Source: Minisyncoccota bacterium (lineage in GTDB: Bacteria > Patescibacteriota > Minisyncoccia > Phycocordibacterales > SW-6-46-9). From it: a DNA stretch of 35,343 nucleotides. The notes below the pieces were generated by a model, which did no database searches, was not told where the DNA came from, and was given only the letters and a program-made list of their open reading frames with translations. Of the stretch, positions 578-25,582 are shown piece by piece. The stretch spans positions 1 through 35,343 of the forward strand of contig JBBDUH010000041.1 in the NCBI GenBank assembly GCA_040904005.1, written 5' to 3'. Numbering within the stretch: the stretch's first letter is position 1; each line of letters begins with the position of its first letter. The position numbers and the translations under genes were made by a program.

Positions 578-1446
578 AGACATGACCGTTGTAGTTACGT
601 AAAGGGTGTAATAACCCTTTGCCTCAACAGCACCGAGCAAAACCTTTTTGTTTAGCTCTTGCTTTTGCGGGTAAAAAAATTCTGCTATATGCGGGAAAAT
701 CTGAAGTATCCAGCACTACTCACGTGATAGTCGATCACGAAGTAACAATGTGTCTGGTGCAGACAATCCGCAGGAAAGACTTCTGCTTTCAACCTTTACC
801 ATGGAAAAGAAATGGTTAGAAAAGATTGAAACAAAACATGGTTTCTACATAGCTGGCTTCACGGACGGAGAAGGAAGCTTTAATGTCTCAGTGAAGAAAA
901 GAAAAGACTATGTAAATAACTGGAAGCTGGCTGCCTCCTTTAATATCTCTCAAAAGGACAGAGTTATTCTGGCCTGGATAAAGAAGATATTAGGATGCGG
1001 TAGCTTACGAGAGAGGAAAGACGGAATGGTTTATTATGAAGTGACAAATATTAGGTCACTGCATGAAAAAATCGTTCCCTTCTTCAAGAAGTTCTCTTTT
1101 CTCTCAGCTCGAAAAAAACAAAACTTTGCTATTTTCAAAAAGATAGTAAAACTAATGTACGAAAAAGAACACTTGGATCCAGAGGGATTCAAGGAAGTTC
1201 TAAAACTCCGCGCAAAACTGAATTATGATGCCGGAAGGAAGCGAAAGTACACATTAGAAATGTTTAATCAAGCAGAAGAATCCTCAGAGACTAATACGCA
1301 GAACGACTCATAAGCCCAACGCCTATTTATGAGTTGAAGATAGAGTCCGATCTTTGTGGCGACACAAAGTCCCGATGTTTACAGTCGGGACTCCGACCGC
1401 GCAAGTGTGTCGGGGTTAACACCAGAAGATTGCTACCTTTATACAG
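578..1446 (+). mobile_element. Group I intron inserted after the U equivalent to E. coli 23S U1917 (helix 69), carrying a homing endonuclease ORF
   Basis: Removing 578..1446 restores gtaactat|aacggtcc exactly. The 5' exon ends in U (577) and the intron ends in G (1446). An 8-bp P1 forms between exon 570-577 gtaactat and intron 591-598 gtagttac, including the splice-site U.G wobble. A J8/7-P7-like aagatagagtccgatc lies at 1338-1353. Confidence 0.85.
801..1313 (+). CDS. LAGLIDADG homing endonuclease, single-motif (I-CreI-like homodimer type)
   Basis: FYIAGFTDGEGSFNVSV motif near the N-terminus, about 170 aa, layout collinear with I-CreI-type enzymes. The ORF lies wholly inside intron 1. ATG at 801 is preferred; a GTG at 750 is possible. 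Confidence 0.85.
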   Translation: MEKKWLEKIETKHGFYIAGFTDGEGSFNVSVKKRKDYVNNWKLAASFNISQKDRVILAWIKKILGCGSLRERKDGMVYYEVTNIRSLHEKIVPFFKKFSFLSARKKQNFAIFKKIVKLMYEKEHLDPEGFKEVLKLRAKLNYDAGRKRKYTLEMFNQAEESSETNTQNDS

Positions 1447-2314: not shown

Positions 2315-2717
2315 GGTGTTGTTGGCTTCATTGTGGAAATATTTGAAGGATTACGTATCCTTCAGTGGGTGACGCTCACAAATGGAAAGTGGTGAAGAAA
2401 GATGTAGAGGGAGGATTAAATACCCTCTCGAGAAAAACCACCAGTCCGAGCGTGCATTTTACTAACTATATTCTGTCTGCAACTCGACAGAACCTCGTCA
2501 AAAGACGGCGGTTAGTTGTAAATGTGAGAAGGTAACTTCTCCACCCTATGAAATTCATTTGGGCTGCTAGCTCAACGGTAGAGCATTCTCAACGTAAGAG
2601 AGCGATTGACCGGGTTCAAGTCCTGTCCCAGCCCCTAATGAATTTTCATCCACACTAATTTCCATTGGTAAGCATATACTTCACAAAGCTTGCCTCCACA
2701 ATGAAGCCAACAACACC
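2315..2717. repeat. Perfect 23-bp inverted repeat (arms 2315-2337 and 2695-2717) enclosing 357 nt of intron 2
   Basis: ggtgttgttggcttcattgtgga is the exact reverse complement of tccacaatgaagccaacaacacc. Confidence 0.85.
2561..2634 (+). ncRNA. tRNA-like cloverleaf (pseudo-tRNA, anticodon-position CGU = Thr-like) embedded in intron 2
   Basis: GGGCTG acceptor strand pairs with CAGCCC. Canonical T8 A9 GCTC-AACGGTA-GAGC D arm with A14, G18 G19 and A21. TTCTC-AACGTAA-GAGAG anticodon arm. GGGTTCAAGTCC T arm. Defects: A at position 33, a C-C mismatch at 7-66, one extra C before the acceptor 3' strand, and no discriminator or CCA context. Confidence 0.4.
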
Positions 2718-2964: not shown

Positions 2965-3003
<39 letters not shown>

Positions 3004-3158
3004 CTAAGATTAGGAATCATTAAGACCCGTAGGAGACGACTACGTTGATAGGCTCTCGGTGTACGTGTAGCAATACACTCAGCCATGGAGTACTAATTCG
3101 TCGGACGTTTCCCGTAGGAATTGTGTGGATCACAGAGGTGGTAGATTTAATGTACATG

Positions 3159-3286: not shown

Positions 3287-3396
3287 TTCTGGTGACTTGG
3301 CGGAGGGGTAACACCTGATCCCATTTCGAACTCAGCAGTTAAGTCCTCCAGCGCCGATGGTAGTCCTCACGGGCAAGAGTAGGTCGTCGCCAGAAT
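3287..3396 (+). rRNA. rrf: 5S rRNA
   Basis: ttctggtgac...gtcgccagaat terminal helix. Conserved cacctgatcccatttcgaactcag, agcgccgatggtag and agagtagg blocks. About 110 nt. Confidence 0.9.
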
Positions 3397-4268: not shown

Positions 4269-5444
4269 GTGCTTACACAAATACGCAACCAATTTAGACA
4301 TATTGACTGGATACTTCTTGCCGCCACGTTGCCCATCATGGCCGGGGGTTTGGTTACAATGCGTCCTCTAGGTGATGGTGACAGTCTTTACTCACAGCAA
4401 CTGGTCTGGATAATCTTATCAATTTTTATATTTTTCGTCGCTGCACTTGGGACGTACCGGTTTCTGCGCCGCCGAGCCGTTATTATCACAATTTTCTTAG
4501 CCGCTGTTGCTGCACTTATTCTGGTCACCCTTACCGGAACAATTGCCGGTGGTGCGCAAAGTTGGTTTGATCTTGGGCCATTTCGAGTCCAACCGGCAGA
4601 ACCGGCTAAGCTAGCAATAATAATTATTCTGGCCAAGTACTTCGATCGTCGGCATGCCTTGATACATAATTTCCGTCACATTATCATTTCTGGTCTCTAT
4701 GCCTTCCTGGTAGCCGGCTTAGTTTTTCTTCAGCCTGACTTCGGTTCAGCCATTATTATTGCCGCAATTTGGTTTGGGATGATTCTTATTGCTGGTATTT
4801 CTTTACGGCATGTTCTGGTTCTTATCGCCGCTGCGCTGCTTGTTTTCACCCTTCTCTGGACAGTTGGATTCACCACTGAACAGAAGGAGCGTGTCACCTC
4901 CTTTACCAATCCAGTTACTGATCTGCAGGGTGCTGGTTACAATGCTCGGCAGGCCATGGTGGCTGTTGGCTCTGGCCAGCTTCTAGGAAAGGGGATTGGG
5001 TATGGCACTCAGTCGCGTCTTTCCTTTCTACCGGAGCACCAGACAGACTTCATATTTGCTGCCTTTGCTGAGGAGTGGGGCTTTGTCGGGGTTCTGATTC
5101 TGCTACTACTTTTTGGAATCATCTTTTGGCGGATCGCTAACCTAGCTTTGGCTGGGGAAACACAGTTTGAACGCCTGTTCGGTGCCGGTGTATTTATTTT
5201 TTTACTTACGCATGTGGTGATGCATGTCGGAATTAATCTTGGCCTGCTGCCGGTTACAGGCACCACCTTGCCGTTTATGTCTTACGGGGGAAGTCATTTG
5301 TTAGTTGAGTTTTTAGCGCTCGGAATACTGGTTGGTATGCAGCAGTATCGACGAGCAGGAAATATTTCTCGATTGTCTTTTTCTGATCTTCCCGAAACTT
5401 CTGAACGTGGTATTATGCGGGAAAACGACCATGCCAAAAGTTAA
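4269..5444 (+). CDS. SEDS-family peptidoglycan glycosyltransferase (FtsW/RodA/SpoVE)
   Basis: Polytopic 391-aa ORF with QPAEPAKLAIIIILAKYF, LPEHQTDFIFAAFAEEWGFVG and TGTTLPFMSYGGSHLL signatures. GTG start. Confidence 0.85.
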   Translation: MLTQIRNQFRHIDWILLAATLPIMAGGLVTMRPLGDGDSLYSQQLVWIILSIFIFFVAALGTYRFLRRRAVIITIFLAAVAALILVTLTGTIAGGAQSWFDLGPFRVQPAEPAKLAIIIILAKYFDRRHALIHNFRHIIISGLYAFLVAGLVFLQPDFGSAIIIAAIWFGMILIAGISLRHVLVLIAAALLVFTLLWTVGFTTEQKERVTSFTNPVTDLQGAGYNARQAMVAVGSGQLLGKGIGYGTQSRLSFLPEHQTDFIFAAFAEEWGFVGVLILLLLFGIIFWRIANLALAGETQFERLFGAGVFIFLLTHVVMHVGINLGLLPVTGTTLPFMSYGGSHLLVEFLALGILVGMQQYRRAGNISRLSFSDLPETSERGIMRENDHAKS

Positions 5445-6768
5445 AAACACACCTTACGGTCTTCTTTTCTTGGGCGATCTCGCGCTACTCTCCTTATCGT
5501 TGTACGCAACACTTACATTTCGCTACTGGGAAACGCCAGGAAAGGAACTGCTCGCCGATCACTTCACGGCATTCTCTGCTTTGTTTATCGTCTGGCTACT
5601 GGTCTTCTTTGTGGCTGGTCTATATGATCGTCGGACTCTTTTCCTACCGGAGTCCTTATGGCAGCGTATCCTGCGCATCCAGATCGTTAACAGCATTATT
5701 GCGGTTCTGTTTTTCTACACAATTCCCTTTTTCGGCATCGCTCCCAAGACAAATCTATTTATATACTTAGTGGTCTCGTTTGTGCTTTTGGTGGCGTGGC
5801 GGTACTGGGCACAGGCACTTTTGCGCTCGCGTAGTCCACAGCAGGTTCTGCTTATAGCACCACAGTCGATTGGACAGGAGGTTTCTAATAAATTGATGCA
5901 AGGTGGATATGGATTGGAGGTAGTGGATCATCTCAATCCCGACGACCTATCTGCAGAAGATCTTTACCGACAGGCACGGATTATTATTGATTCAGCCCCG
6001 GTTTCTTTCGTGGTAATTGATATGCAGCACAGAGTTATTGAAGCGGTTTTGCCAAAGCTACATAATTTTTTGTATGCGAATATTGATTTCGTTACTCTCG
6101 ACTCACTCTATGAGTTAATCTTTGACCGTGTAGCAATGGATCGGCTTGATCACGAGTGGTTAATTAAAAACATTCATCAAACTCCACACACTGCTTACGA
6201 TACCCTTAAGCGCGGTATGGATATTCTTATTGCCTGTGTTCTCGGCCTGCTGTCCCTGCCGTTTTATGTGGTAGTAGCTCCGTTTCTACTTTTCTCGGGC
6301 GAAACAACACTTTTCTCTCGCCAGGAACGGCTGGGTCAAGGCGGGAAGGCCTTCACTATTTATAAGTTTCGCACCATGCTGTTTGCCAACAAGACAAGAG
6401 AGGAAGGAAACCGGGTGACAAAGATTGGGGAACTGCTGCGTAAAACACGTATTGACGAGCTACCCCAGATACTGAATGTCATTACCGGAGATATGTCCTT
6501 CATTGGTCCGCGGCCAGAGTTTCCGGGGCTTGTTGATGTGTATGTCGGAAAAATCCCGTACTTCAATGCCCGCCACTTAATTAAGCCAGGCATCTCTGGC
6601 TGGGCCCAGCTTCTGCACACCGATCCGCCCAAGCATGAAGCCGAGGTGGAGAAGGCACGGATGAAGCTCGCTTATGATCTTTACTACGTTAAGAACCGTT
6701 CCTTTATGCTTGATATTAAAATTGCTCTCTGGACACTGCGAGTTCTTGCCTCTCGTTCGGGCAGGTAA
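5431..6768 (+). CDS. Polyprenyl-phosphate glycosyl-1-phosphate transferase (bacterial sugar transferase, WbaP/EpsB-like)
   Basis: N-terminal TM block plus a C-terminal sugar-transferase domain: KRGMDILIACVLGLL, YKFRTM, IDELPQILNVITGDMSFIGPRPE. ATG 5431 (MPKVKN) is chosen over the 5332 ORF start and overlaps the upstream stop by 14 nt. Confidence 0.8.
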   Translation: MPKVKNTPYGLLFLGDLALLSLSLYATLTFRYWETPGKELLADHFTAFSALFIVWLLVFFVAGLYDRRTLFLPESLWQRILRIQIVNSIIAVLFFYTIPFFGIAPKTNLFIYLVVSFVLLVAWRYWAQALLRSRSPQQVLLIAPQSIGQEVSNKLMQGGYGLEVVDHLNPDDLSAEDLYRQARIIIDSAPVSFVVIDMQHRVIEAVLPKLHNFLYANIDFVTLDSLYELIFDRVAMDRLDHEWLIKNIHQTPHTAYDTLKRGMDILIACVLGLLSLPFYVVVAPFLLFSGETTLFSRQERLGQGGKAFTIYKFRTMLFANKTREEGNRVTKIGELLRKTRIDELPQILNVITGDMSFIGPRPEFPGLVDVYVGKIPYFNARHLIKPGISGWAQLLHTDPPKHEAEVEKARMKLAYDLYYVKNRSFMLDIKIALWTLRVLASRSGR

Positions 6769-7066: not shown

Positions 7067-8458
7067 GTGACAAAGGTTCGTATTACAGCCATTTTGATTC
7101 TCATCGCCAGCGTTGCGCTAGGTTTTTTTGTATACAACACGGAGGCCGACGATGACTCTCCTTACCATCTTCAGTACGGCCTCGATCTTTCTGGTGGGGC
7201 ACACCTTGTTTATCAGGCCGATGTTTCTGGTCTAGACTCCTCTCAAATTGATCCGGCGATGTCTTCGCTGCGTGACATCATTGAGCAGCGGGTAAATGCG
7301 CTTGGCGTTTCTGAGCCATTAGTGCAGGTTGAGGAGAGTAGCATCAGTGGTGAGACGTACCACCGACTCATTGTGGAGTTGCCAGGAGTACAGGACGTTG
7401 AGGAGGCCAAGGCACAGATTGGCGAAGCACCACTGCTTGAGTTTAAGTTGCAGGTCAATCGAGCCAGTAGTCAGACGTTTGAGTTAGGGGAAGACGGTGT
7501 TGTTGCTACTTCTTCCGGGACAAATACTGTAGCTGATAATTATGAATCGACTGAGCCAGCTCTCACTGGTCGTTATGTAGAGAGTGCTCAGGTGCAGTTC
7601 GGTGGCTCCCAAGGGCTTTCAAATGAACCGGTAGTACTACTAAATTTTGATAAAGAAGGAGGTGAGATCTTCTCGCGGATTACTCAGGAGCATACTGGTG
7701 AGGTGCTTGGCGTATTTCTCGATGGCGAGCTCATCTCTAGCCCAGTCATCCAGCAGCACATTACTGGTGGTACCGCTCAAATTAGCGGTAGTTTCACCAC
7801 AGACGAGGCGCTTGAGCTGCGTGATCAGTTGAATCTCGGAGCTCTTCCGGTGCCGGTTGAGGTTGTTTCTGAACAGACTGTTGGTGCTTCCTTGGGGCAG
7901 GCGGTAAAAGAAGATGGCATTAAGGCCGGGATCATTGGTCTTATTATTGTCTCAATTTTTCTCATTCTCTGGTACCGCCTACCAGGACTGGTGGCGGTGG
8001 GTTCCTTGGCTATCTACATTCTTTTAATGCTCTTGATTTTCAAGCTGATTCCGGTAACACTGACAGCCGCTGGAATCGCTGGCTTCATTCTCTCTATCGG
8101 TATGGCGGTCGATGCTAATGTGCTCATCTTCGAGCGCATCAAAGAAGAGCTGGGTAATCCGAATACCACGATGCGTGATGTTGTTGAGGAAGGCTTCTCA
8201 CGGGCCTGGCCATCAATTCGTGATGCCAACATCTCCAGCATCATTACCGCTATCATTCTTTTCTACATTGGTACCACTCTGACGCAGGGCTTTGCTGTCA
8301 CCTTTGGGCTCGGAGTTATGGTCAGTATGTTGACGGCGATCTCTATCAGCCGCACCTTCCTGATTGCTGTGGCTGGAGAGACACGCACAAAGATCAAGCA
8401 CACTTTATTTGCCCCCGGACTCCGCACTGGCAATGAGTTTAATGAACACACCGACTAA
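7067..8458 (+). CDS. secD: Protein translocase subunit SecD
   Basis: N-terminal TM, periplasmic domain with GLDLSGGAHLVYQAD, and a C-terminal 5-TM block with GMAVDANVLIFERIKEEL. GTG start. Confidence 0.9.
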   Translation: MTKVRITAILILIASVALGFFVYNTEADDDSPYHLQYGLDLSGGAHLVYQADVSGLDSSQIDPAMSSLRDIIEQRVNALGVSEPLVQVEESSISGETYHRLIVELPGVQDVEEAKAQIGEAPLLEFKLQVNRASSQTFELGEDGVVATSSGTNTVADNYESTEPALTGRYVESAQVQFGGSQGLSNEPVVLLNFDKEGGEIFSRITQEHTGEVLGVFLDGELISSPVIQQHITGGTAQISGSFTTDEALELRDQLNLGALPVPVEVVSEQTVGASLGQAVKEDGIKAGIIGLIIVSIFLILWYRLPGLVAVGSLAIYILLMLLIFKLIPVTLTAAGIAGFILSIGMAVDANVLIFERIKEELGNPNTTMRDVVEEGFSRAWPSIRDANISSIITAIILFYIGTTLTQGFAVTFGLGVMVSMLTAISISRTFLIAVAGETRTKIKHTLFAPGLRTGNEFNEHTD

Positions 8459-22063: not shown

Positions 22064-25000
22064 ATGAGTGACGAAAAACGAGAGAAGTCAGAAGTGGCTA
22101 AGCGCGAGGAGGAGACTTTAGAATTCTGGCGCGAAAACAACATCTTCGAAAAGACGCTTGCCAAAGAAGCGCCACAAGGTGAGTTCGTTTTCTATGACGG
22201 CCCACCATTTGCTACCGGACTGCCGCACTATGGGCACATTCTTCCCGGTACAATCAAGGATGTCATTCCTCGTTTCAAGACTATGCAGGGCTATCACGTA
22301 GAGCGCCAGTGGGGTTGGGATACACATGGATTACCGCTAGAAAATCAGGTGGAGGAGCACCTTAAGCTGGAAACAAAAAAGGATATTTCTGAGTACGGCA
22401 TTGGTAAATTTAACAAGGTAGCGAAGGACTTCGTGCTGCAGTATGCAGAAGACTGGAAACGAATTATTCCTCGCACCGGTCGCTGGGTGGATATGGACAA
22501 CGACTACCGCACCATGGATTCCAGCTACACCGAGAGTATCTGGTGGGCCTTCAGTGAGTTAAATAAAAAGGAGCTTATTTATGAAGGCTTTAAGTCGATG
22601 CATGTTTGTCCGCGCTGTGAGACACCACTATCAAATTTTGAGGTAAATCAAGGCTACGTCGAGCAGAAGGATATCGCTGTGACCGTAAAGCTACCACTGA
22701 CTGATGAGCCGGGCACCAGTCTTTTGGTCTGGACAACTACACCATGGACACTCCCAGGAAACATGGCCGTAGCAGTGAATCCCGAATTAATATACGCAAA
22801 AGTTTCTTCTAAGGATGAGAATTTCATTGTTGCTAAGGAAATGACAGTTGATATTTTTAAGGACAATAATTTCGAAATCATTGCAGAATTTCTGGGCAAG
22901 GAACTCGTGGGTAAGGAGTATCAACCGCCATTTAGCTACTTTCAGGACAAGGATATCGAGAACAAAGAGAATGCCTGGCGGGTGTACGGGGCCGACTTCG
23001 TTACCCTCGAGGAGGGTACTGGTCTGGTCCACATTGCACCCGCCTTTGGCGCCGATGACCTCGCTTTGGCCGAAGAGCACAGTATTCCCATCGTTCATCA
23101 CGTGACCAAAGCGGGAGAATTCACCACTGACGTTAAGGACTTTGCCGGTATGAAGGTCAAGCCGCGTGATGAGGGCAATGAAGAGCATCTGACGGCCGAT
23201 ATTGAGATCCTGAAGCACTTACTTGATAAGGACCTCATGTTTGCTAAGGAAAATATCCATCACCAGTATCCACTTTGCTGGCGCTGCAATACGCCGCTTT
23301 TAAACTACGCCACCACCTCCTGGTTTGTAGAGGTCAGCTCGTTCAAGGACGATCTGGTTGCTGCTAATGATAAGATCGGCTGGGTCCCAAAGGCTATTGG
23401 CTCCAATCGATTCGGTAACTGGCTGGAAGGTGCGCGCGACTGGGCGATTTCTCGCGAGCGCTTCTGGGGTGCACCACTGCCGGTGTGGAAGTCAGAAGAT
23501 GGAGAAGAACTTGAGATAATTAGCTCGCTTGCCGATCTCAAGGAGAAAACCAAAAGCTCCAACACCTTCTTTGCAATGCGGCATGGTGGGGCCGAACATA
23601 ATAAGGCGGGTGTTATTGACAGCTCTGATCCAGAAAAGGTTGGTCTAACACCTGAAGGAGAGAAGGGAGTTAAAGAAAGTACCGGTGATTTAACCGGAGT
23701 TGATCTTATTTTTGCATCCCCATTTCGCCGCTGTCGGGAAACAGCCGCAATTATTGCTAATGAAGTTGGGTTGTCTGAGGACCAGATTATTACTGATGAC
23801 CGGATTCGTGAGTACGACTTTGGTGACTTCGAGGGCAAACCGATTGACGATTACCGCCAGTGGCGCGATGTGCAAGATGATTTTTATACAACTAAAATTC
23901 CCGGTGGTGAGAGCTTTATGGACCTAAAGCGACGCGCTGGTGAGTTTCTTTACGATATCGATGAAAAGTATCAGGATAAAAATATTCTTATCGTATCGCA
24001 CGGCTGGTTTATAGAGGTCTTGCCGGCAATTCTTGAAGGGGCTGATACTAAGAGAGCAGTTGAGCTGTATGAAAAGAGTAAGGTGGACCCGGGCCACATA
24101 GAACCTTTCTCTTTCTCTCTGTTGCCTCATAACGAAGACTTCGAGCTCGACCTTCATCGTCCGTATATTGATGAGATCACCTGGGAAACAAACGGGAAAA
24201 AGCTGCAGCGCATCGACAGTGTCTTCGACTGCTGGTTTGAGTCTGGCTCTATGCCGTACGCGTCTAAGCACTATCCGTTCGCTGATAATGATTTTTCACC
24301 AGATGAAGGCAAGGGCTACCCGGCTAACTTTATCTCCGAAGGCCTCGATCAGACACGGGGCTGGTTTTACTCATCTCTAGTGCTTGGCGTCGGGCTATTT
24401 GGTAAGTCTCCATATGAGAATGTGATTGTGAATGGATTAGTTATGGCAGAGGATGGGCAGAAGATGAGTAAATCAAAGCAAAATTACCCGCCCGTAACCG
24501 ACATTCTTGATAATCAGGGCGCTGATGCGCTACGCTTCTTTTTGGTAAATTCTCCATTAGTACGTGGAGAGAATGTCAGCCTCTCTACTGGTGATGTAGA
24601 TGAGGTGGTTAAGAAGGTAATGCATCGTCTTAGCAACACATACTCATTTATTGCGATGTACAGCACCACAGAAGAGCGTGAGGCTGCACAAAAACAAGAG
24701 ATAGAGGTAGAGAATGTTTTAGATCGCTGGATCATGGTTTGTCTTAACCAACTAATCCAGAATGTTACTGCTGGGCTAGAGAGTTATCAGATCGACAAAG
24801 CCACTAAGCCAATCGTTGATTTCATCGATGATCTCTCCACATGGTATGTCCGTCGCTCTCGTGATCGTATCCGTGGCAAAGAAGGTGCTGATCGTGATCA
24901 GGCCATTAAAATAATCTTACATGTATTGGAGCAGGTATCTAAAGTGTTAGCACCGTTTATGCCATTTCTGGCTGAGAGGTTGTATCAGGATGTAACTCTT

Positions 25001-25582
25001 AAGCAAGAAGAGGAAAGCGTCCACCTAACTGATTGGCCCTCCTTCGCTAAAGCTTCGGAGGACAAGCCGAAGGCGGATGCTTACAAGGACTCTGATACGT
25101 TGCTGGCCGATATGCGCGTGCTGCGTGAAGCTGTCTCGCATGCCCATGATCTGCGCAGTCAGGCCGGCATCAAGGTACGTCAGCCGCTAGCAAAGCTATC
25201 GCTGCGGGATGACCGTCTTAAGGGCAAGGATGAGCTGTTGGAAATCCTCGCTGACGAGGTGAATGTCAAGGAGATTGCTTTTGATACCGCGCTTGTCTCG
25301 CCGGCTGCGCTTGATACCGAGCTCACCGCTGACCTCAAAGAGAAGGGAGTGGTGCGCGAGCTTATTCGCACCGTCCAACGTCTACGCAAAGAGGCCGATC
25401 TTGACCCGACTGAGTCTATTACCCTGGCAGTTGAGACCGACCCAGCTGGTCAGAAGCTTCTGGAAGCTCACACCGACGAGATCGCCGAAACAGCCACTGT
25501 CGCCGAGCTTTCCTTTACTGATGTTACCGACGGTGCTGAAGTCACTGAGCACGATCTCTCATTTACGGTGAAAATACTATAA
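22064..25582 (+). CDS. ileS: Isoleucyl-tRNA synthetase (type 2-like) with an inserted histidine-phosphatase domain
   Basis: PHYGHILPG (HIGH), TTPWTLPGN, WAISRERFWGAPLPVW, DCWFESGSMPY and KMSKSKQN (KMSKS). 1172 aa. Inserted RHG-type domain at about aa 497-690. Confidence 0.9.
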   Translation: MSDEKREKSEVAKREEETLEFWRENNIFEKTLAKEAPQGEFVFYDGPPFATGLPHYGHILPGTIKDVIPRFKTMQGYHVERQWGWDTHGLPLENQVEEHLKLETKKDISEYGIGKFNKVAKDFVLQYAEDWKRIIPRTGRWVDMDNDYRTMDSSYTESIWWAFSELNKKELIYEGFKSMHVCPRCETPLSNFEVNQGYVEQKDIAVTVKLPLTDEPGTSLLVWTTTPWTLPGNMAVAVNPELIYAKVSSKDENFIVAKEMTVDIFKDNNFEIIAEFLGKELVGKEYQPPFSYFQDKDIENKENAWRVYGADFVTLEEGTGLVHIAPAFGADDLALAEEHSIPIVHHVTKAGEFTTDVKDFAGMKVKPRDEGNEEHLTADIEILKHLLDKDLMFAKENIHHQYPLCWRCNTPLLNYATTSWFVEVSSFKDDLVAANDKIGWVPKAIGSNRFGNWLEGARDWAISRERFWGAPLPVWKSEDGEELEIISSLADLKEKTKSSNTFFAMRHGGAEHNKAGVIDSSDPEKVGLTPEGEKGVKESTGDLTGVDLIFASPFRRCRETAAIIANEVGLSEDQIITDDRIREYDFGDFEGKPIDDYRQWRDVQDDFYTTKIPGGESFMDLKRRAGEFLYDIDEKYQDKNILIVSHGWFIEVLPAILEGADTKRAVELYEKSKVDPGHIEPFSFSLLPHNEDFELDLHRPYIDEITWETNGKKLQRIDSVFDCWFESGSMPYASKHYPFADNDFSPDEGKGYPANFISEGLDQTRGWFYSSLVLGVGLFGKSPYENVIVNGLVMAEDGQKMSKSKQNYPPVTDILDNQGADALRFFLVNSPLVRGENVSLSTGDVDEVVKKVMHRLSNTYSFIAMYSTTEEREAAQKQEIEVENVLDRWIMVCLNQLIQNVTAGLESYQIDKATKPIVDFIDDLSTWYVRRSRDRIRGKEGADRDQAIKIILHVLEQVSKVLAPFMPFLAERLYQDVTLKQEEESVHLTDWPSFAKASEDKPKADAYKDSDTLLADMRVLREAVSHAHDLRSQAGIKVRQPLAKLSLRDDRLKGKDELLEILADEVNVKEIAFDTALVSPAALDTELTADLKEKGVVRELIRTVQRLRKEADLDPTESITLAVETDPAGQKLLEAHTDEIAETATVAELSFTDVTDGAEVTEHDLSFTVKIL

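Follow-up and report, generated by a model that had tools for sequence, protein, structure and literature searches.

Cloverleaf-like folds that lack decoding features are known from several longer RNAs. MALAT1 mascRNA and the plant mitochondrial t-elements are tRNA-like elements in long transcripts that are cut by RNase P and RNase Z, and the bacterial YrlA Y RNAs contain a tRNA-like domain. Group I introns are themselves tied to the recognition of tRNA-like shape through CYT-18, which recognises their tRNA-mimicking P4-P6 core. The Cr.LSU intron of the Chlamydomonas chloroplast, which carries I-CreI, occupies what we take to be the same 23S insertion site as the intron considered here.

Introns in rRNA are frequent among CPR bacteria, and position 2593 of the 23S rRNA (E. 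coli numbering) is a group I intron site in the CPR survey, with a LAGLIDADG gene usually present (PMC11270868). A tRNA sequence as the cargo of a group I intron has been described in fungal mitochondria, as in atp6-i1 of Ophiostoma minus, which holds a tRNA-Ile (PMC7902536).

Here we analyse a tRNA-like cloverleaf at positions 2561-2634, within the group I intron that interrupts a 23S rRNA gene at position 2593. It lies in a 35,343-nucleotide stretch of DNA (contig JBBDUH010000041.1 of assembly GCA_040904005.1), which we call the window; all intron features given below are on the + strand. Our analysis suggests, with moderate confidence, that the cloverleaf is a tRNA-derived and possibly tRNA-Thr-like passenger, and that the insertion in which it sits, at the tip of the P6 hairpin, is young and lineage-specific.

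The locus resembles the CPR introns at 2593 in its site, its intron class and its large insert in a peripheral loop, but where the usual cargo of those introns is a LAGLIDADG gene, the P6 cargo here is some 400 nt of non-coding, structured sequence that includes the cloverleaf and has no endonuclease remnant (PMC11270868). With the fungal mitochondrial introns it shares a tRNA sequence as group I cargo; there, however, the tRNA is called by standard tools and lies beside an endonuclease gene in introns of organelle protein genes, whereas the cloverleaf in the window scores below threshold, is extended by a helix at its base and belongs to a bacterial rRNA intron (PMC7902536). The survey of CPR rRNA introns makes no mention of tRNA, and we found no case of a tRNA-like sequence in a bacterial intron in the literature. 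The initial annotation, for its part, was not aware of a description of this arrangement for bacterial rRNA introns.

The comparison with non-decoding cloverleaves is looser. The mascRNA and t-elements are likewise cloverleaf-like folds in longer RNAs, but they are conserved, and experiments have demonstrated how they are processed, whereas the cloverleaf in the window is a predicted fold that is not conserved and is held by a helix at both ends. In the CYT-18 case it is the conserved intron core that mimics a tRNA in three dimensions, with no cloverleaf sequence involved; the window, in contrast, has an actual tRNA-type sequence, placed in a peripheral insert that is dispensable. YrlA is a bacterial non-coding RNA with modules resembling D and T arms on a long stem, but that stem, as we understand it, does not continue from the acceptor stem, as the extension in the window does.

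Genomic context and host intron

The window begins inside a bacterial 23S rRNA gene, which the Rfam LSU model matches from position 1, and has a 5S rRNA at 3288-3395 (Rfam). The rRNAs are followed by housekeeping genes for RodA/FtsW, a sugar transferase, SecD, SecF, SHMT, ArgRS and IleRS. The top relatives of RodA are labelled Candidatus Paceibacterota, Parcubacteria or Patescibacteria, and therefore we place the host organism among the CPR bacteria, in the Paceibacterota of the Patescibacteria. The window's own RodA protein is not on record. The isoleucyl-tRNA synthetase gene (22064-25582, 1172 aa) has a His_Phos_1 (histidine-phosphatase) domain at residues 504-664 (E = 7.5e-30), an unusual domain insertion that splits the two matched parts of the catalytic domain.

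Another group I intron interrupts the same 23S gene at E. coli position 1917 (window 578-1446, between exon ends CUAU and AACGG); it scores 37.8 bits against RF00028 at 1121-1369. Its ORF at 750-1313 encodes a LAGLIDADG_1 homing endonuclease (Pfam E = 6e-22) with more than 1000 homologues, the majority of them on short metagenome contigs. An intron with a LAGLIDADG gene of this kind is what has been described for CPR bacteria (PMC11270868).

The intron that hosts the cloverleaf is 704 nt long (2122-2825). Its assignment to group I, as proposed in the initial annotation, is borne out by the P1 hairpin, by the terminal G, by the P7 and J8/7 motifs and by the RF00028 scores of its homologues. The exons, once joined, read ...CAGACCGU followed directly by CGUAAGACAGG..., which we take to align with E. 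coli ...ACGU2593 and C2594GUGAGACAG, in a numbering checked against the landmarks A2602, U2609 and C2611. In the P1 hairpin (2112-2159), found both as an inverted repeat and in the minimum-energy fold, the end of the 5' exon and the start of the intron face the internal guide sequence across a GAGA loop; the exon end UUCAGACCGU pairs with the guide sequence and leaves a U2121.G2150 wobble at the 5' splice site. The final base of the intron is G2825, the terminal G expected of a group I intron.

The part of the core that lies 3' of the insert (2726-2772) is delimited by a partial RF00028 alignment and by stretches that are invariant in relatives. It comprises the 5' strand of P7 (GACUA, 2726-2730), the P3' strand, the P8 hairpin (2740-2761) with its GUAA loop, J8/7, and the 3' strand of P7 (UAGUC, 2768-2772). 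The segments AGACUAAAC (2725-2733) and AAGCUAUAGUCC (2762-2773), which span P7 and J8/7, fit the RF00028 model and are invariant in the relatives. The window's copy of the intron scores only 10.9 bits on RF00028, against a gathering score of 50, because the P6 insert interrupts the alignment; homologous introns reach 52.9 (L159), 39.2 (L161) and 26.9 bits (L003). The intron itself appears intact, since the core flanks are 77-89% identical to those of the relatives, and it would presumably be self-splicing. Position 2593 is within the peptidyl-transferase region, and therefore removal of the intron is needed for a working ribosome.

An intron segment upstream of the insert, CAACCUGAUUUACG (2201-2214), could pair with the 14 nt at which the 3' exon begins (2826-2839), the complementarity being 86%. 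L001, L003 and L013 have it without change, L161 almost so, and in L166 it is less conserved. The segment may thus bind the 3' exon through an extended contact of the P10 kind.

Related introns and the P6 insertion

We obtained the 23S 3' regions of relatives by way of the neighbouring RodA gene and of the LAGLIDADG gene in the upstream intron. A homologous intron at 2593 is present in five lineages: L001/L159 (GCA_040905385.1), L003/L013, L161/L162, L166/L167 and L168 (GCA_007117035.1). For the three closest lineages (L001, L003, L013, L161 and L162) the BLAST alignment with the window ends at 2311 and restarts at 2720. The flanks of the L159 intron are 82-89% identical to the window, as measured on L001, which is the same contig. 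The gap is wider in the alignment with L166/L167, where the insert is absent, and it is also absent from the L168 intron, which is too diverged for BLAST alignment. In multiple alignments all five lineages have a P6 hairpin of 16-31 nt in place of about 408 nt, and it is the RF00028 alignment of L159 that assigns this variable hairpin to P6, answering the question of which paired element hosts the cloverleaf. Judged from these alignments, the cloverleaf is part of a lineage-specific expansion of P6.

The tRNA-like match is missing from the relatives as well. The introns of the three relatives scanned, L161, L003 and L159, have no RF00005 match at E <= 1, and there are no tRNA genes in the relatives' loci. 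Since both insert and match are missing, the cloverleaf does not belong to the conserved domains of the intron family. The description of the cloverleaf as an integrated domain of the intron RNA is therefore right as to topology but has to be narrowed: it belongs to an insertion of about 408 nt in P6, without which five related introns are found.

Additional sequence occurs at other peripheral sites in these introns. L003 (about 7851-7925) and L013 (about 141-215) have an AT-rich palindrome of about 70 nt immediately past the 5' splice site, and L168 (about 5340-5480) has more than 100 extra nt in its P2 region. Gains of inserts thus recur in this intron family, the relatives having palindromic insertions elsewhere in the periphery.

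The closest relatives of all contribute little to this comparison. The contigs of L165 and L169, whose RodA is 94-95% identical, end inside the 3' end of the 23S gene, short of the intron, and L160, a contig from run SRR27977661, although 100% identical to the window across its own first 477 nt, covers only window position 3024 onward. Nearly all contigs of this lineage and its relatives (L160, L165, L169, L012 and others) break at about 2970-3024, in a conserved 23S stretch, and therefore the intron regions of the closest relatives are missing from public assemblies.

The expansion itself (about 408 nt, 2312-2719, bounded by the BLAST gaps) is closed by a stem of 23 perfect base pairs between 2315-2337 and 2695-2717, two strands that are 100% complementary as an inverted repeat and are predicted to pair with a probability of about 1.0; beyond a bulged A the stem gains 3 bp more (2311-2313 with 2718-2720). 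The remainder of the insert, without resemblance to a tRNA (2338-2547), contains a hairpin at 2344-2364, a long bent hairpin at 2372-2453, a three-way junction at 2454-2525 (72 nt) and a hairpin at 2526-2541 capped by the GNRA-type tetraloop GUAA. Without the cloverleaf, this part is strongly structured when folded (z = -5.6), none of 200 shuffled sequences being equally stable. No coding signal was detected in it: there are stop codons in all frames of the insert, and no Pfam match in the ORFs of the intron is significant. A search of the insert with 4227 Rfam families returned no RNA family other than the sub-threshold tRNA match. We also considered a decayed homing-endonuclease gene in P6 and rejected it, given the Pfam result and the negative scores of all six frames against a profile of 121 LAGLIDADG proteins.

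The palindromic character of the insert extends to its pairing. The 23-bp closing stem and the 12-bp extension below the cloverleaf have no G.U pairs and are essentially perfect inverted repeats. The insert folds equally well from either strand (-113.7 vs -115.3 kcal/mol) and has about 7% G.U pairs, whereas in the related intron cores the sense strand is favoured by 5-11 kcal/mol and G.U pairs make up 11-15%. This strand symmetry and the paucity of G.U pairs weakly favour, as far as predicted folds go, recent palindromes made at the level of DNA over long selection at the level of RNA.

The cloverleaf and its tRNA resemblance

The cloverleaf (2561-2634), with CGU at the anticodon position, is delimited by its RF00005 match, by the ARAGORN call at the 90% threshold and by alignment to tRNA-Thr genes. 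Its sequence and its helical extension are as the initial annotation had given them, and the folds agree. The acceptor stem GGGCUG/CAGCCC (2561-2566 with 2629-2634) has 6 bp, followed by a C2567.C2628 mismatch at 7-66, in place of a regular 7 bp. U8 and A9 precede the D arm GCUC-AACGGUA-GAGC (2570-2584). The anticodon arm UUCUC-AACGUAA-GAGAG (2586-2602) places CGU at 2593-2595 in a loop of the usual 7 nt, but position 33 is A rather than U. After a variable region that we read as CGAUU (2603-2607) comes the T arm GACCGGG-UUCAAGU-CCUGUC (2608-2627), whose stem is not a regular 5 bp: its extra bases appear as a bulge in one reading, and as a 7-nt variable loop with a mismatch in that of ARAGORN. 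All four stems still pair, and direct reading finds all the tertiary nucleotides kept (U8, A14, G18, G19, A21, U54, U55, C56, A58 and A15-U48).

At its base the cloverleaf runs into the helical extension, in which 2548-2559 pairs with 2637-2649, a pairing recognised as an inverted repeat and in the folding of the 102-nt piece. The extension has 12 bp and one bulged U, or a 10-bp register when the whole insert is folded. Both ends of the cloverleaf thus continue into a helix of 10-12 bp, with no discriminator, no encoded CCA and no free ends. The predicted folds leave U2560 (position -1) and C2635-U2636 unpaired, as a small internal loop that separates the acceptor from the extension. From A33, the irregular T stem, the C.C mismatch at 7-66 and the lack of free ends and CCA, we judge that the element can no longer function as a decoding tRNA.

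How strong is the resemblance to a tRNA? RF00005 aligns 2561-2634 end to end (model positions 1-70) at 19.2 bits, under the gathering score of 29. The E-value of this match is 0.4 over 851 nt and 4227 families; recomputed for the tRNA model alone, it comes to about 1e-4 on the 851-nt stretch and, over the entire window, to about 0.004. ARAGORN at default settings reports 0 genes and misses the cloverleaf, but at a 90% threshold it calls tRNA-Thr(cgt) at 2562-2635, the sole call in 35 kb; looser thresholds give 4 calls (85%) and 20 calls (80%) in the same 35 kb. The resemblance to a tRNA therefore exceeds chance, yet it lies under the thresholds at which tRNA genes are called, and the relaxed search proposed in the initial annotation succeeds with ARAGORN only as far as this permissive setting and with RF00005 falls short of the gathering score.

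Folding is consistent with the cloverleaf. The 102-nt piece (2548-2649) folds as a cloverleaf on the extension with z = -2.75, 3 of 200 shuffled sequences being as stable, and the cloverleaf is retained in the minimum-energy fold of the whole intron. In context, the predicted pair probabilities average 0.97 in the acceptor, 0.81 in the D stem, 0.65 in the anticodon stem and 0.87 in the extension, with weaker values of 0.4-0.7 in the T stem. The initial annotation would have counted as refuted by a covariance score no higher than noise together with a lack of conservation in homologous introns; of these only the second is found, the homologues not having the element, while the score is above noise.

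As to its source, the loop AACGUAA differs from that of tRNA-Thr(CGU) at positions 32 and 33 only. In nine phage loci ARAGORN typed nine tRNAs that match it in D arm and T loop, and five of these are tRNA-Thr. In the fetched sample 10 of the 25 nearest real tRNAs are tRNA-Thr, although this sample is biased, since it was chosen for sharing the D arm and T loop. Bacterial tRNA-Thr acceptors typically have C2-G71, whereas the cloverleaf has G2-C71. The best identity of the cloverleaf to any fetched tRNA is about 80%, and no source gene was found among the fetched tRNAs. A tRNA-Thr-like origin, for which the CGU triplet and the shared arms are the chief grounds, is accordingly no more than suggestive because of the missing source gene, the 80% best identity and the bias of the sample.

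Searches for other copies of the insert were negative. The 35-kb window and the fetched relatives have no second copy, blastn against phage and plasmid records gave no match, and neither did IMG/VR viral contigs scanned for the stem and for the A33-type loop. When metagenomes were scanned for this D arm and T loop at a longer spacing, the matches listed were ordinary tRNAs only, none of them matching the intron. A scan of the genome collection with the conserved P7-P8-P7' core pattern recovered only the already known relative JBBDRP010000002.1, a six-frame translated chimeric protein query made from the whole intron had no matches, and exact look-up of ten spurious intron ORFs found none in the collection. 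The absence of the insert elsewhere is weakly established by these searches, and because they turned up neither a source tRNA gene nor a second copy of the insert, neither its origin nor its age is demonstrated.

Discussion

Our results are best explained, in our judgement, by a decaying copy of a tRNA that was captured by the intron, rather than by a working part of the intron, because the insert is lacking in five related introns. Of the three suggestions in the initial annotation (a captured and decayed tRNA gene, a handle for RNase P or RNase Z, and a mimic that recruits a protein), the captured gene fits best, given the sub-threshold score and the absence of the insert from relatives. Capture would have occurred at the level of DNA, into the P6 loop. 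The cloverleaf would since be transcribed within the pre-23S rRNA and leave with the intron during self-splicing, and its present state would be neutral. The insert would be tolerated because the P6 stem of 26 bp keeps its roughly 360 nt off the catalytic core.

How could a mere passenger have kept all the nucleotides of the L-shape? Their retention fits selection for shape as well as it fits a recent capture, and the structured remainder of the insert, with its GNRA-capped hairpin, would speak against a mere passenger, as these predicted structures resemble functional peripheral domains of introns. We nevertheless regard it as unlikely that the cloverleaf is a selected functional module, whether an RNase P/Z handle by which the excised rRNA intron would give off a tRNA-like small RNA, or a dock for a tRNA-binding protein in a CPR bacterium of reduced genome. 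As a processing handle it would be cut by RNase P 5' of G2561 and trimmed by RNase Z or exonucleases after C2635, before or after splicing, so that the intron RNA is broken up or a tRNA-like small RNA is released. The stacked acceptor and T helices, the intact T loop and the predicted unpaired U2560 and C2635-U2636 would suit such cuts; but leader and trailer are locked in a helix of 10-12 bp, the acceptor-T stack is irregular, and the five related introns without a cloverleaf are presumably still spliced out. A leader and trailer locked in a helix hinder RNase P, and we consider both the handle and either of its outcomes improbable. Docking of a tRNA-binding protein (an aminoacyl-tRNA synthetase, a CCA-adding enzyme or a modification enzyme), which might either keep the enlarged intron stable or target it for decay, seems to us less probable again. 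The L-shape nucleotides are there for such a protein, CGUAA at the anticodon position agrees with the tRNA-Thr loop at 5 of its 7 bases, and Neurospora CYT-18 is a precedent for splicing assisted by a synthetase. CYT-18, however, binds the P4-P6 core and not an appended cloverleaf; a synthetase would be less likely to recognise an element with A33, with G2-C71 and with no free 3' end, and the related introns manage without any cloverleaf.

The least credible reading of all is a tRNA-Thr(CGU) gene that still works inside the intron, its product maturing from the RNA after excision: the relaxed ARAGORN call names this tRNA, and fungal mitochondrial group I introns do host tRNA genes (PMC7902536), but the score is under the RF00005 gathering score, default ARAGORN finds nothing, and A33, the irregular T stem with its extra bases and the 7-66 mismatch all count against it. 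Hardly more credible would be that the resemblance is due to chance or that assembly produced an artefact. The case is a single one, on a metagenome-assembled contig and with a sub-threshold score; against this stand the E-value of about 1e-4 for the tRNA model on the stretch and the sole ARAGORN call at 90% in 35 kb, and the insert takes the place of the P6 tip, keeps the register of the stem and leaves the core undisturbed. L160, which was assembled independently, agrees with the window at 100% identity, but only from 3024 onward, which is outside the insert. The palindromes call for one further comparison, with a foldback or MITE-type non-autonomous element, either the insert or the cloverleaf with its 12-bp repeats, that landed in the P6 loop. 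Nested and essentially perfect inverted repeats of 23 bp (2315-2337/2695-2717) and 12 bp, the strand-symmetric fold and the palindromic insertions at other peripheral sites of the relatives' introns would all agree with such an element. It would be expected to leave other traces, however: no target-site duplication is seen at 2311/2312 and 2719/2720, where the flanks ...CGAGGGA and CCUGUAG... have no direct repeat, and no second copy was found in the window, the fetched relatives, phage and plasmid records or IMG/VR contigs. We therefore hold a mobile element to be unlikely too, on a par with a functional module, and retain the captured tRNA copy as the preferred reading.

If the cloverleaf is a mere passenger, as we favour, the peripheral loops of CPR rRNA introns acquire foreign sequence, with cargo that goes beyond endonuclease genes, and a tRNA copy can persist in a nearly foldable state in an intron loop. 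There are consequences for annotation as well: inserts of this kind drop introns under the Rfam threshold (10.9 bits here, vs 52.9 in a relative), and near-threshold tRNA calls can arise from them inside rRNA genes. If, on the other hand, the cloverleaf were functional, this would apparently be the first bacterial intron, as far as we have found, to host a tRNA-like RNA, and the turnover or the splicing of the intron would be tied to the tRNA-processing machinery. As a functional module it would mean, more generally, that a bacterial group I intron can host a non-coding RNA, and the structured insert of 360 nt would then be a new RNA domain.
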